DNA of 64,000 nt from Escherichia coli (GCF_009931435.1 NZ_CP043414.1); one strand, 5' to 3'. Positions 4,307-61,189 are shown, counted from the first letter of the stretch. Made by a program: numbers and translations. The notes: generated from the sequence alone by a model not told the origin.

Positions 4307-4667
4307 GTTTCCGTGTCCATCCTTGTTAAAACAAGAAATTTTACGGAATAACCCATTTTGCCCGACCGATCATCCACGCAGCAATGGCGTAAGACGTATT
4401 GATCTTTCAGGCAGTTAGCGGGCTGCGGGTTGCAGTCCTTACCGGTAGATGGAAATATTTCTGGAGAGTAATACCCAGTCTGTTTCTTTGATAATTGCGC
4501 TGTTTTTCCGCATGAAAAACGGGCAACCGACACTCTGCGCCTCTTTGAGCTGACGATAACCGTGAGGTTGGCGACGCGACTAGACACGAGGCCATCGGTT
4601 CACACCCGGAAAGGCGTTACTTTGCCCGCAGCTTAGTCGTCAATGTAAGAATAATGAGTAAGTTACG
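4307..4667 (+). promoter_or_regulatory. long rne 5' leader (autoregulatory UTR) and promoter region
   Basis: About 570 bp of non-coding sequence precedes the rne ATG; rne is known to have a ~361-nt structured leader. Boundaries estimated, not read from sequence. Confidence 0.5.
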
Positions 4668-26372: not shown

Positions 26373-26423
26373 TTATCCTTTGTGTCCGGCAAAAACATCC
26401 CTTCAGCCGGAGCATAGAGATTA

Positions 26424-35626: not shown

Positions 35627-39809
<4,183 letters not shown>

Positions 39810-41256: not shown

Positions 41257-42687
41257 TTACAATAACCATTCCACAGGCAATATCGACGCCAGTCTGACCA
41301 TAACCCGCTTCCAGAAACTGGTAGCGGGTTCTTTTTTGAGAACAATTTCTTTCTTTGCATGACGATCAACCCAGTTGATCCGCCCCCACCTGTCCAGACG
41401 GAGCTGCCAGGCCGCATCATACTGGCTCTGAATAAAGCGTTTATCAATTAACTGTGCCAGCGTTTCGCTCTCTATCACGAACCCCATTTCAGTATTGAGC
41501 AATGTCGAACGTGGATCGAAATTGAAAGAGCCAATAAACACCGTTTTACCATCGATGCTAAAGGTTTTAGCATGCAGGCTGGCACCGGAATTACCGGTTA
41601 TGCCGCGATCGTGTAACGTACTACTTTGTTCACGCGTCGGCTTGAGTTCATATAACTCCACGCCGTAGCGGAGCAATTTTTTGCGCCAGCGCGCGTATCC
41701 GGCATGGACGACAGCAACATCGTTAGCGGCAAGAGAATTGGTTAGGATCGCAATCTTTACCCCTTTTCTCACCATCCGTAAGAGTTGCGCCACACCTGCG
41801 CGTGTCGGTACAAAATAGGAAGAGATAATATCGATGCGTTCACTGGGTGAGCCCATGATATCGAACAGGCGCTGCGGTAACAGTGAATGCCGTTTTGCCT
41901 TGCCTTCCCCTTTCGCCGGATCATCACTTAATAAACGTGTTTTCGCCCAGATAAGCGGCAACGTTCCATCAACCAGATGATTTATAAACGGGCTGGATTC
42001 CATTTTGCGTAAATAACGATGCGTCATGGCATCGTCATGCCAGGAGGCGGGTAACTCGATGCGATCCGCCATTTCACCTTCCGGGACATCCAGCACCTGC
42101 TGTAAGGGTGAAACCGATTTACAATACCAGTAGCGGGCGAAATCATCGGCAACGTCCTCTACAACTGGTCCTATTGCCATGACATCTAAATCCGAAAAAA
42201 GTGGCTCTTCCCCTGCACCAAAATAGGCATCACCAATATTTCGTCCCCCCACCAGAGTCACCACACCATCGACGGTGAAACTTTTATTGTGCATACGGCG
42301 ATTGAGACGGGAAAAGTCGGTGATATAACCAAGCGGACGTAGCAGTCGAAACGAAAAAGGATTAAAAAGCCGGACTTCAATGCGGGGATGACTGTCAAGC
42401 AAGCGTAAAATGTCGTCAAGTCCGGGTGTATTGTTGTCGTCCAGCAACAAACGGACGCGAACGCCACGCTTTGCTGCGGCTAACAGGGCGGAAAACAGTA
42501 ACCGACCCGACATATCGTCCTGCCAGATGTAATACTGAACATCCAGCGTATGCTCTGCCATTTCGGCCAGACGATACCGGGCGGCAAACGCATCCAGACT
42601 TTTCTCCAGAGGGAAAAGGCCACACTGACCGGGATGTTGCGAACACAGTGGCAGCACCGCGCTCGCCAGCCGGGGCAAATCATTCAT
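41257..42687 (-). CDS. clsC: cardiolipin synthase C ClsC (YmdC), two PLD/HKD domains
   Basis: Track ORF (496 aa) trimmed to ATG at 42685-42687 ([21 protein letters not shown]...), whose start overlaps the ymdB stop as ATGAATGA. Exact start uncertain by a few codons. Confidence 0.85.
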
Positions 42688-43213
42688 CTCCTTGTTGGGT
42701 AAGGAGTCTTTCGTAGAGGTGGGCGTTTTCTTCATCATAACAGACAAAGTATACCTGTTCGGGTAAAGCGTGACGGGTAATAAATTCTGAAACGGTTTTT
42801 ACTGCGATTTCAGCCGCTGCCGCACGAGGGTAACCATAAACCCCAGTACTAATTGCAGGAAAAGCCACTGACGTATAGCTGTTTGCCGCCACCAGTCGTA
42901 GGCTATTGAGATAGGCATCCTGCAAAAGCTGGTCTTCGTTTTGTTCACCACCACGCCAGACTGGCCCGACGGTGTGCACTACGGCTTTAGCGGGAAGATC
43001 GCCTGCAAGCGTAATAACGGCATGCCCCGTAGGGCAATCGCCCTGCTGTTGCCTGACTTTTAAACAGGCATCCAGAAGGGCCGGACCCGCTGCGCGATGA
43101 ATGGCTCCATCGACGCCGCCGCCTCCCATTAATGACGGATTAGCCGCATTCACAATCACATCAACGGCCAGTTTGGTAATATCACCCTGCACAACATGAA
43201 TACGCGTTTTCAT
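42680..43213 (-). CDS. ymdB: macrodomain O-acetyl-ADP-ribose deacetylase YmdB
   Basis: 177-aa [46 protein letters not shown]... Confidence 0.95.
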
Positions 43214-45082: not shown

Positions 45083-45837
45083 GTTGTCACCCTGGACCTG
45101 GTCGTACATTTAAGAAATTAAATCATTTCAACTTAGTTGTTAACGCAACCTGTATTTTGTTAACGCCGCGTTACGATGGAAAGTATGTCTGCGGAAATAT
45201 TTTTAATAACTCACCCGCGCGTTGTATTTTTCTTTTTTTGTTCATACCAAAGTATTAAAACCCACGTAAATACGCTGTTATCTACGCAAAAAAAATATTT
45301 TGTTTTCTTTTAAATTTCGGTTTTCCGCAATCAAAAATCACCAGACAGTCATTCTTCTTGCCCGTCGCTGATTGCTGCGATATGTCTTGCGCACAAGCCG
45401 TGACAAACCTCGTCTTTTTGCAGTAAAAAATTGTCCACGGAGGTGTGGAGAAAAAACAAGAACGTTTTACATGACGAAAGGACTACACCGAAATATTTTT
45501 TATATGCATTATTAGCAAGTTAGCACCATTTGTATGATTTTTTAAAATTGTGCAAGAAAAACCAAATGTACAACTTTTCTATCATTTCTAAACTTAATAA
45601 AACCTTAAGATTAACATTTTAATATAACAAGTTACATTTAGTTACATGTTTAACACTTGATTTAAGATTTGTAATGGCTAGATTGAAATCAGATGTAATC
45701 CATTAGTTTTATATTTTACCCATTTAGGGCTGATTTATTACTACACACAGCAGTGCAACATCTGTCAGTACTTCTGGTGCTTCTATTTTAGAGGCAGCTG
45801 TCAGGTGTGCGATCAATAAAAAAAGCGGGGTTTCATC
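45083..45837. promoter_or_regulatory. csgBAC / csgDEFG divergent control region
   Basis: 755-bp AT-rich divergent spacer; the csgD -10 candidate TAGATT at 45679-45684 places the start site about 148 nt upstream of the csgD ATG. Confidence 0.7.
45631..45656 (+). promoter_or_regulatory. OmpR-binding site of the csgD promoter
   Basis: gttacatttagttacatgtttaacac, tandem GTTACAT half-sites just upstream of the csgD -35 region. Confidence 0.6.
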
Positions 45838-51381: not shown

Positions 51382-51469
51382 GGTGAGGTGTCCGAGTGGC
51401 TGAAGGAGCACGCCTGGAAAGTGTGTATACGGCAACGTATCGGGGGTTCGAATCCCCCCCTCACCGCCA
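51382..51469 (+). tRNA. serX: tRNA-Ser (anticodon GGA), CCA encoded
   Basis: ggtgaggtgtccgagtggctgaaggagcacgcctggaaagtgtgtatacggcaacgtatcgggggttcgaatccccccctcaccgcca; long variable arm, T-loop GGTTCGAATCC, anticodon GGA. Confidence 0.93.
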
Positions 51470-60124: not shown

Positions 60125-61189
60125 TTAACTGTATGCATGTAGCGTACGTTGGCAAAGTGCCGAACGTACGCAATCCTCTTTACCGAATCGGACGATCCCG
60201 ACCATTTCATCTTCTTCGAAACGTTCCAGCGCGTCACTTAATCCGGAGCGCACGCCGCGAGGCAAATCGCATTGCGTGATATCACCGTTGACGATAACCG
60301 TCACGTTCTCCCCGAGGCGGGTTAAAAACATTTTCATTTGCGCGGCAGTCACATTCTGCGCCTCGTCAAGAATGACGACTGCATTTTCAAAGGTACGTCC
60401 ACGCATATAGGCGAACGGCGCGATTTCCACCTTCCCTATTTCCGGTCGCAGGCAGTACTGCATAAAGGAAGCCCCTAAGCGCCGGACCAGCACGTCGTAG
60501 ACCGGACGAAAATAGGGAGCAAACTTTTCTGCGATATCTCCAGGTAAGAAGCCAAGATCTTCATCGGCTTGCAGAACTGGACGGGTGACGATAATCCTGT
60601 CGACATCCTTATGTATCAGGGCCTCTGCCGCTTTTGCTGCGCTGATCCAGGTTTTTCCGCACCCGGCTTCGCCGGTGGCGAATATCAGCTGCTTACTCTC
60701 AATAGCCTTCAGATAGTGCAATTGCGCTTCATTTCGCGCGAGGATGGGCGAGGTATCGCGACTGTCGCGGGCCATACCAATGGCTTCTACGCCGCTCATC
60801 TGCACAAGCGAGGTGACCGATTCTTCTTCACGCTGCTTATGGCTGCGCGAATCCCGTCTCAGCACACGTTTTGCCTCGCGACGAGCTTTGATCACTGCTT
60901 TTTGTCTTCCCATGGAGAGCACCTTGAGTTGTTTGTATTCATCACACGCGCCGTTGGCAGCGCGATTATGCGCACGAACATCAGAGGGTTGGCTTCCTTG
61001 TAAGCCATAGTTTGCTTTTGGATAAAATGCCGAAAAACGGCTACGCGCACCGTTTACGGCGTCGGTAACACATGAAAAGAAAGGTTGAGGTTGAAAATGC
61101 AAAGTGACGAGATGACTACCGGAGGAGAAATCTCCGCGAGTGGTGGAGCGTTGCTTAACAAAACATTGTCCAGTACAGGACGTTACCAT
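60125..61189 (-). CDS. phoH: phosphate starvation-inducible ATPase PhoH
   Basis: 354-aa ORF MVTSCTGQCFVKQRSTTRGDFSSGSHLVTLHFQ...; Walker A GEAGCGKT in the C-terminal domain. Confidence 0.93.
   Translation of the reverse strand: MVTSCTGQCFVKQRSTTRGDFSSGSHLVTLHFQPQPFFSCVTDAVNGARSRFSAFYPKANYGLQGSQPSDVRAHNRAANGACDEYKQLKVLSMGRQKAVIKARREAKRVLRRDSRSHKQREEESVTSLVQMSGVEAIGMARDSRDTSPILARNEAQLHYLKAIESKQLIFATGEAGCGKTWISAAKAAEALIHKDVDRIIVTRPVLQADEDLGFLPGDIAEKFAPYFRPVYDVLVRRLGASFMQYCLRPEIGKVEIAPFAYMRGRTFENAVVILDEAQNVTAAQMKMFLTRLGENVTVIVNGDITQCDLPRGVRSGLSDALERFEEDEMVGIVRFGKEDCVRSALCQRTLHAYS

Follow-up and report, generated by a model that had tools for sequence, protein, structure and literature searches.

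At which codon does translation of clsC, the gene for one of the three cardiolipin synthases of Escherichia coli, begin? The question is raised by a 64,000-nt stretch of E. coli DNA (GCF_009931435.1, NZ_CP043414.1; hereafter the window), in which clsC follows ymdB on the minus strand and overlaps its 3' end. Annotations disagree about the start, which is placed at TTG 42678 in MG1655, at ATG 42738 by the Prokaryotic Genome Annotation Pipeline (PGAP) of RefSeq and at TTG 42747 in the list of open reading frames (ORFs). A preliminary description of the window had instead chosen ATG 42687, which overlaps the ymdB stop codon, had suggested translational coupling of the two genes, and had treated the 20 upstream codons of the longer ORF as an artefact of ORF calling. 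There are thus three public ClsC N-termini (473, 493 and 496 aa) and a fourth (476 aa) from that description, and the true start decides the identity of the protein, the design of expression constructs, whether dependence on YmdB is an effect of the protein or a cis effect of the mRNA, and whether the K-12 annotation should be corrected. On comparative grounds, we find that an [A/T]TG lying within the last part of ymdB, in another reading frame, is the conserved clsC start, and in many relatives the only one. We put the probability that this embedded start (42738/42735) is used in E. coli at roughly 0.6.

The ymdB/clsC Overlap and Five Candidate Start Codons

The features on which the argument turns are as follows.

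42680..43213, minus strand: ymdB, 177 aa, macrodomain O-acetyl-ADP-ribose deacetylase (ORF list, RefSeq and MG1655)
41257..42738, minus strand: clsC, long form, 493 aa, 55.9 kDa, WP_001307714.1, with a 59-nt overlap with ymdB (RefSeq/PGAP)
42728..42754, minus strand: conserved initiation-region block GTATACTTTGTCTGTTATGATGAAGAAAA, with invariant sites at 42749 (TAC), 42737 (TAT) and 42728 (GAA); 42746 (TTT) is nearly so
42745..42747, minus strand: TTG, start in the ORF list, 496 aa, made of the TTT of YmdB Phe156 and the following G; AGGU lies 4-5 nt upstream
42736..42738, minus strand: ATG, RefSeq/PGAP start, 493 aa, made of the TAT of YmdB Tyr159 and the G of Asp160; the conserved embedded candidate
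42733..42735, minus strand: ATG, second of the cluster, 492 aa; site of the published initiation signal (-57 from the annotated TTG)
42688..42693, minus strand: AAGGAG, Shine-Dalgarno-like motif (anti-Shine-Dalgarno duplex -7.3 / -8.5 kcal/mol)
42685..42687, minus strand: ATG, start of the preliminary description, 476 aa, overlapping the ymdB stop codon
42680..42687, minus strand: ATGAATGA, overlap of this junction ATG with the ymdB stop codon (read from the sequence)
42676..42678, minus strand: TTG, curated MG1655 start (b1046, NP_415564.2), 473 aa, 1 nt past the ymdB stop codon

The gene product is ClsC, a cardiolipin synthase of the phospholipase D superfamily. It has two HxKxxxxD (HKD) motifs, HNKSFTVD and HAKTFSID, and is annotated as clsC in RefSeq and MG1655. 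No ClsC-specific NCBIfam model matched, and the other Cls models hit below their cut-offs, as is expected because ClsC is a paralogue. A 601-nt query over the junction matched 5423 of 5426 complete E. coli genomes, with 100% identity to strain RM14723. In both RefSeq and MG1655, ymdB and clsC are same-strand neighbors, and in the sequence their frames overlap. ymdB runs from 43213 to 42680 with its stop TGA at 42682-42680, and its 3' end, CAA CAA GGA GAT GAA TGA, is translated to QQGDE; shifted to the frame of clsC, this segment becomes AAG GAG ATG AAT GAT TTG CCC CGG, or KEMNDLPR.

Reading both frames on the minus strand bore out the 8-nt overlap that had been described, in which the in-frame clsC ATG (42687-42685) shares the octamer ATGAATGA with the ymdB TGA; the ORF list indeed opens clsC farther upstream, at TTG 42747. 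The octamer occurs five times in the window against 2.5 expected, a count reached in 8 of 100 shuffles. Its occurrence is not beyond chance, and its sole notable point is its position beside the stop codon. The junction ATG consists of the GAT of YmdB Asp176 and the G of Glu177, and is a by-product of the Asp-Glu-stop codons of ymdB; GAT and GAC are about equally frequent at this Asp in relatives.

Annotators almost never pick ATG 42687, which is the start in neither major annotation. When about 15 billion proteins were searched for exact matches, 1000 contigs or more carried the 493-aa form, 139 the 473-aa form and a single one the 476-aa form, and the 492- and 496-aa forms were absent. The mass quoted for ClsC in the field, 53,666 Da (PMC8027125), is near the 53,652 Da computed for the 473-aa form. 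Scanning of the junction region revealed no minus-strand promoter-like site inside ymdB, for which reason an internal promoter was rejected, and no convincing terminator; no Rfam family matched at the junction. An antisense 96-aa ORF opening with GTG also spans the junction (42426-42716, plus strand), which is a purely mechanical call.

Conservation of the Embedded Start in Enterobacteriaceae

One genome per species was scanned, which yielded 80 ClsC loci, 23 of them with ymdB upstream. Salmonella enterica and two further lineages were added through exact-protein look-ups, and 25 genome loci were used. A homologue search with the N-terminal 137 aa of ClsC, which returned only proteins shorter than about 240 aa, several of them partial, led to the DNA of Salmonella and of loci L085 and L086. 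A metagenome set was collected with the pattern VQYYIWEDDM, E. coli being excluded, and gave 34 loci, 32 of them analysable; because this motif lies about 50 codons downstream of the junction, the sample is unbiased with respect to the junction itself. The pooled comparison comprised 57 ymdB-clsC loci of Enterobacteriaceae with 50 distinct junction sequences.

An ATG or TTG is present at the position of 42738 in all 57 loci and all 50 distinct junction sequences, and the clsC frame is open from this codon in 54 of the loci. No ATG, GTG or TTG lies within 8 codons of the conserved xRL motif in 29 of the 57. Within the metagenome loci alone (n = 32), ymdB and the embedded start are found in all, 23 are devoid of a start within 8 codons of the motif, and one, L123, has a dead long frame together with junction starts. 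The long frame is broken in three of the 57 loci (L008, L086 and L123), each of which has a junction start; none of the 57 is without both an embedded and a junction start. The upstream start of E. coli is intact and matches the conserved consensus perfectly. The codon corresponding to TTG 42747 is lost or is a stop codon in L019, L101 and three Citrobacter.

The preliminary description had proposed an alignment of ClsC N-termini across enterobacteria as a check, and this comparison speaks against its choice of start. Stop-adjacent starts are missing from Salmonella, Leclercia, two Enterobacter, Escherichia sp. ESNIH1, Pseudescherichia, Superficieibacter, Kosakonia, two Atlantibacter and Siccibacter, where the codon after stop+1 is ACG, ACA, ACC, TCC or AAA; in some of these loci, a GTG or TTG occurs sporadically, 7-8 codons ahead of the conserved motif. 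In Salmonella, Leclercia and Enterobacter sp. ENT03 there is no canonical start except the embedded cluster, which lies inside ymdB and precedes the conserved (T/P)RL motif by 19-26 codons.

The chance of such an arrangement was estimated with a shuffle null in which each YmdB protein was kept and its codons were resampled by the species' own usage. For most species the probability of both a start and an open frame was 0.11-0.2, and the product over nine independent lineages without a junction start was about 1e-7, a value that rests on imperfect independence, although two-fold sites look near saturation. The 20 upstream codons are therefore poorly described as a product of ORF calling, given the [A/T]TG in 57 of 57 loci, a frame open beyond shuffle expectation and the published initiation signal at -57 discussed below. 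Conservation and translation of these codons, which the preliminary description had named as what would speak against it, were both largely found, translation being indicated by that published signal, which its authors flagged as not conclusive.

Two further observations concern this frame. In Salmonella enterica (L084), L095, L097 and L122, 148 codons ahead of the TRL motif are free of stops in the clsC frame, which thus extends through most of ymdB; in other genera the open stretch is much shorter, at 37-77 codons, a difference that may or may not be due to chance. In E. coli NCTC11151 (L087), a 1-base deletion in the CCCC run after the TTG (around 42672-42675), for which RefSeq flags clsC as frameshifted, is probably a homopolymer sequencing error.

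Constraint on Synonymous Sites and a Relic Outside ymdB

The embedded start is created by YmdB Cys-(Tyr/Phe)-Asp, encoded as TGY-T(A/T)T-GAY. In a survey of synonymous sites in 20 dereplicated species, the third base of the codon for Tyr/Phe159 is T in all 20, while other two-fold sites of ymdB mostly have 2-10 minor alleles. The invariant single-residue two-fold sites of ymdB are Q57 and those of the start cluster, namely Y155 (TAC), Y/F159 and E162 (GAA), the last of which gives AAA as the fourth ClsC codon. The TTT of F156, which creates TTG 42747, is found in 18 of 20 species. Three of 6-7 sites around the start are invariant, compared to 1-2 of 17-39 upstream (Fisher tests, p = 0.02-0.04). 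TAT and TTT at codon 159 and TTT at codon 156 are non-preferred codons, and constraint on them is thus unexplained by selection for translational accuracy.

Beyond the start, the third positions of ymdB codons 163-177 vary normally in the interspecies alignment, except that of T172. Residue constraint in the extension past its codon 4 was considered and rejected, given the free variation there and the fact that T172 itself is polymorphic in E. coli. The polymorphism, at 42698, is a common ACC/ACT variant that is silent in YmdB Thr172 and gives Pro or Leu in the long ClsC tail. It was found in all four sequenced variant haplotypes. Over the 111-nt stretch that was compared, about one third of the genomes sampled have one or more differences from the window; elsewhere, the polymorphic site is invariant ACC across 12 other species with Thr. 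Since the extension evolves freely past about codon 4, the constraint appears to be on the initiation region rather than on a folded segment.

An independent view of the block is offered by a Phytobacter-like clade (L019, L100, L105 and L121), where 184-300 nt separate the end of the intact ymdB from clsC. At the clsC start of these loci there remains a decayed duplicate of ymdB 3' sequence (terminating in DIYFDSYDNKNIR and a stop codon). It lies at 2400-2470 in L019 and, in L100, L105 and L121, about 100 nt before the TRL motif of clsC, and it keeps ATATACTTTG..GCTATGAC and the ATG. Because the block sits here on a decayed relic outside the ymdB overlap, its conservation in this clade cannot come from YmdB.

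Published Initiation Data

Tetracycline-based ribosome profiling (TetRP) of E. coli K-12 was used previously to screen every NUG codon that is in frame with an annotated start and no more than 60 nt from it (Nakahigashi 2016, PMC4909307). For ymdC, a synonym of clsC, a new ATG was reported at -57 (Table S2, row 99), which corresponds to 42735, with 0/30.1/16.1 reads against 0/0/5.7 at the annotated TTG, and no second candidate was called (PMC4909307). Signals at two sites were found for 22 E. coli genes in the same study (PMC4909307). No entry for clsC, ymdC or ymdB was present in the TRAINSPOTTER and Salmonella riboproteogenomics supplements.

Starts Next to the ymdB Stop Codon

Stop-adjacent starts accompany the embedded one in several lineages. 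The three Escherichia loci have the embedded start and ATGAATGA, E. albertii being without the TTG (TTA); L085 has both as well, with CTG in place of the TTG. Four Citrobacter have TGA-T-ATG, the ATG of which aligns with E. coli TTG 42678, and Dryocola, Cedecea and Buttiauxella have stop-N-GTG, again in addition to the embedded start. The junction start is the only one in C. werkmanii (L008), where it forms an ATGA overlap and a 2-nt indel puts TAA in the clsC frame three codons upstream, and in L086, which has ATGAGTGA and in which codon 13 of the long frame is TGA. Geometry of the ATGAATGA type is also found in L004, L005, L085, L086, L093, L113, L114 and L123. Among six lineages in which YmdB ends in QGDE, the junction ATG is kept in five and the curated TTG in four, the ATG being missing in L098 and the TTG in E. 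albertii and the L085 group.

As the sole usable starts in L008, L086 and L123, junction-type starts can drive ClsC synthesis. The alignments show that stop-adjacent starts have arisen several times and that they suffice where the long frame has been lost. The suggestion of coupling therefore stands in part: the genes are adjacent, their frames overlap and junction starts are the sole option in these three loci, but the junction ATG is not the favored clsC start.

Weighing the Alternatives

In the model that we favor, clsC would have two translation-initiation regions, one embedded in the 3' end of ymdB and one at the junction. The ancestral start would be ATG 42738 with the adjacent ATG 42735, out of frame in ymdB and giving ClsC of 493 or 492 aa, the first ~20 residues of which would form a variable polar tail, probably disordered and overprinted on the C-terminal helix of YmdB. 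This start has no good Shine-Dalgarno sequence; it lies in a U/A-rich block, and the codons that come after it include invariant ones of the AAA type. Initiation on this stretch, which would be unstructured, would not depend on a Shine-Dalgarno sequence; it would probably be weak and open to interference from the traffic of ribosomes on ymdB, which would fit a low-abundance enzyme. A younger junction start may have arisen in some lineages, including Escherichia, when the end of ymdB was remodelled; in E. coli, it would be ATG 42687 and/or TTG 42678, where ribosomes finishing ymdB could re-initiate, the TTG alternatively being reached via AAGGAG. We infer that the embedded start is probably the main clsC start in E. 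coli and that the junction codons are secondary.

If ATG 42687 were the start instead, ribosomes would re-initiate there after the ymdB TGA 5 nt downstream, the product would have 476 aa and the upstream 20 codons would be untranslated. The overlap is real, the ATGA(A/G)TGA geometry recurs in most lineages with a QGDE end (Escherichia, L085, L086, L093, L113, L114 and L123, not L098) and is shared by opgG/opgH in the same window, the gene caller picked the junction ATG in L086, and a junction start must be used in L086 and L123, as their long frame is closed by TGA. We nevertheless regard this as unlikely for E. coli, because the ATG is a by-product of Asp-Glu codons that alternate freely between GAT and GAC in relatives and was lost in L098, the 476-aa product is represented by a single contig, the upstream start is intact in E. 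coli, and TetRP gave no candidate at -9 although that position was within the screened range (PMC4909307). The spacing of AAGGAG to this ATG is 0 nt, too close to serve it.

TTG 42678, which begins 1 nt after the stop codon and would give a 473-aa protein of ~53.7 kDa, has a better claim to that motif, which lies 8-9 nt upstream and gives the best pairing and spacing among the candidates (-8.5 kcal/mol). It is the MG1655 annotation, four Citrobacter have a conserved ATG at the aligned position, Dryocola, Cedecea and Buttiauxella have a GTG in the same stop-N-start geometry, and it is the only junction codon of L098. Its 5.7 TetRP reads came from one of three replicates, compared to the stronger signal at -57 (PMC4909307). 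TTG is a weak start codon; E. albertii has TTA in its place and the L085/L093/L113/L114 group has CTG, and AAGGAG is weakened to AAGGCG in E. albertii and L085. On balance, we find it doubtful that this codon is the start in place of the embedded one. That the conservation at 42728-42754 reflects constraint on the YmdB protein together with codon preference or an RNA element, with relatives using non-canonical starts near the ymdB stop codon, is already disfavored and appears very improbable. A highly conserved YmdB segment of 10 residues does lie in the region, TAC and GAA are preferred codons, and the Fisher p-values reach only 0.02-0.04. However, the codons after stop+1 vary too much for a consistent non-canonical start, the non-preferred codons TAT/TTT (159) and TTT (156) show little or no variation, the openness of the clsC frame has a probability of ~1e-7 under the shuffle null, the block persists on the relic where YmdB coding has decayed, and no Rfam family matches the region.

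Several points weigh against use of the embedded start in E. coli. The ATGs 42738 and 42735 have AGGU alone, 13-16 nt away (-3.8 kcal/mol), while TTG 42678 has a workable AAGGAG. Within Escherichia alone, the comparative test is without power (probability of both start and open frame ~0.2), the synonymous sites give modest statistics, and independence among the species is incomplete. The authors of the TetRP study flagged ymdC as "5. not conclusive (5' ORF)" (PMC4909307), the site being inside the translated ymdB. A literature search, which did not extend to Ribo-RET supplements, found no N-terminal peptide or Ribo-RET data for ClsC. The Pro/Leu polymorphism at 42698 is consistent with the extension being less constrained in the presence of a junction start, and to judge from the loss of the long frame in two independent lineages, the long form is dispensable once there is such a start.

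Two other candidates at the junction were tried and rejected. A hairpin in which CUCCUU (42701-42706) would sequester AAGGAG (42688-42693) as a coupling device has a predicted energy of -6.2 kcal/mol (z = -0.59), 53 of 200 shuffles are as stable, and its stem sequences differ among related junctions. A lipoprotein reading of the E. coli ClsC N-terminus (LPLC) failed because the box departs from the canonical form and relatives do not share the Cys.

Comparison with Known Systems

Coupling through overlapping stop and start codons is known in operons, with junctions such as ATGA, TGATG and ATGnnTGA, for example in trpE-trpD and trpB-trpA. Like these pairs, ymdB and clsC are on the same strand and have a start within a few nt of the stop, and the geometry of ATGAATGA is that of ATGAATAA in opgG/opgH. 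Unlike them, the clsC junction codon is conserved only in a few lineages and has a competitor 48-51 nt upstream, a start that is both intact and conserved. In its 59-nt overlap, the ClsC tail overprinted on the YmdB C-terminus and the constraint on ymdB synonymous sites, the locus resembles embedded out-of-frame starts. Long same-strand overlaps are often mis-annotations; that of clsC appears to differ in being backed by obligatory use in relatives, the shuffle test and the relic clade. In-frame dual starts are known for infB, which yields the alpha and beta forms of initiation factor 2 (IF2), and for ClpB (93/79). clsC, with several in-frame start codons that may be used together, could be similar, but its candidate isoforms, unlike the IF2 and ClpB proteoforms, would differ by a polar tail of ~20 residues without an evident domain. 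Taken beyond this operon, the findings are ordinary: overlapping genes, ambiguity and turnover of start codons, and possible dual starts.

Among the closest relatives of ClsC is the class of ClsO, an outer-membrane lipoprotein cardiolipin synthase of Acinetobacter (PMC12846801). Distant ClsC homologues with a lipoprotein signal peptide and a linker before TRLGRA match ClsO (PMC12846801); unlike ClsO, enterobacterial ClsC has lost this peptide. The signal peptides of these homologues (L044-L083, e.g., L057, L058, L066, L078 and L080, from Burkholderiales, Cupriavidus, Idiomarina and others) contain LLGGC, LIAGC or LIAC (upstream of locus position ~2501), and an LPSLExR motif is conserved in them ~20 residues before TRLGRA. 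Pantoea MTEAFELSPSLER keeps this motif without a signal peptide. In Erwiniaceae, ClsC starts with M[TAS]EAF, and the ymdB-clsC spacer of Mixta is 32 nt. These patterns suggest a rebuilding of the ClsC N-terminus, which took the form M[TAS]EAF in Erwiniaceae at first and was later overprinted on ymdB in Enterobacteriaceae.

Other Features of the Window

The similar overlap that had been described for opgG and opgH is present, and the MG1655 coordinates (opgG 1109335..1110870, opgH from 1110863) concur.

38163..38170, minus strand: ATGAATAA, overlap of the opgG stop and opgH start codons (sequence and MG1655 annotation)

The ORF list lengthens opgH to GTG 38200 (857 aa; 38170-38200) and opgG to 517 aa (39699-39716), while curated MG1655 has opgH from ATG 38170 and opgG with 511 aa, so that the longest ORF again differs from the curated start. 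Rfam matches at gathering score were found at 4307-4643, 2278-2446, 26374-26423, 45691-45782, 51382-51466 and 60130-60323, none near the ymdB/clsC junction; the families are the rne 5' untranslated region element, the small RNA SraB, the PyrC leader, the small RNA ES056 (near csgD/csgB), a transfer RNA and Ysr251.

Implications for the Dependence of ClsC on ymdB

It is known that ymdB and clsC form an operon and that ClsC needs ymdB to function fully (Tan 2012, as cited in PMC4966929 and PMC8027125). The presence of ymdB in cis raises ClsC levels (PMC8027125), and the field's review counts the dependence of ClsC on ymdB among its open questions. A start and initiation region inside ymdB would entail a requirement for ymdB in cis without the YmdB protein. 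We tentatively suggest that ClsC may be made, or work well, only with ymdB DNA as an effect of the start site, with the YmdB protein not needed, the reference start wrong or secondary, and the hand-over between an embedded start and a stop-adjacent one for re-initiation repeated within Enterobacteriaceae. If this is true, constructs and mass estimates based on the K-12 TTG (473 aa, 53.7 kDa) would miss the native initiation region and the first ~20 codons of clsC.

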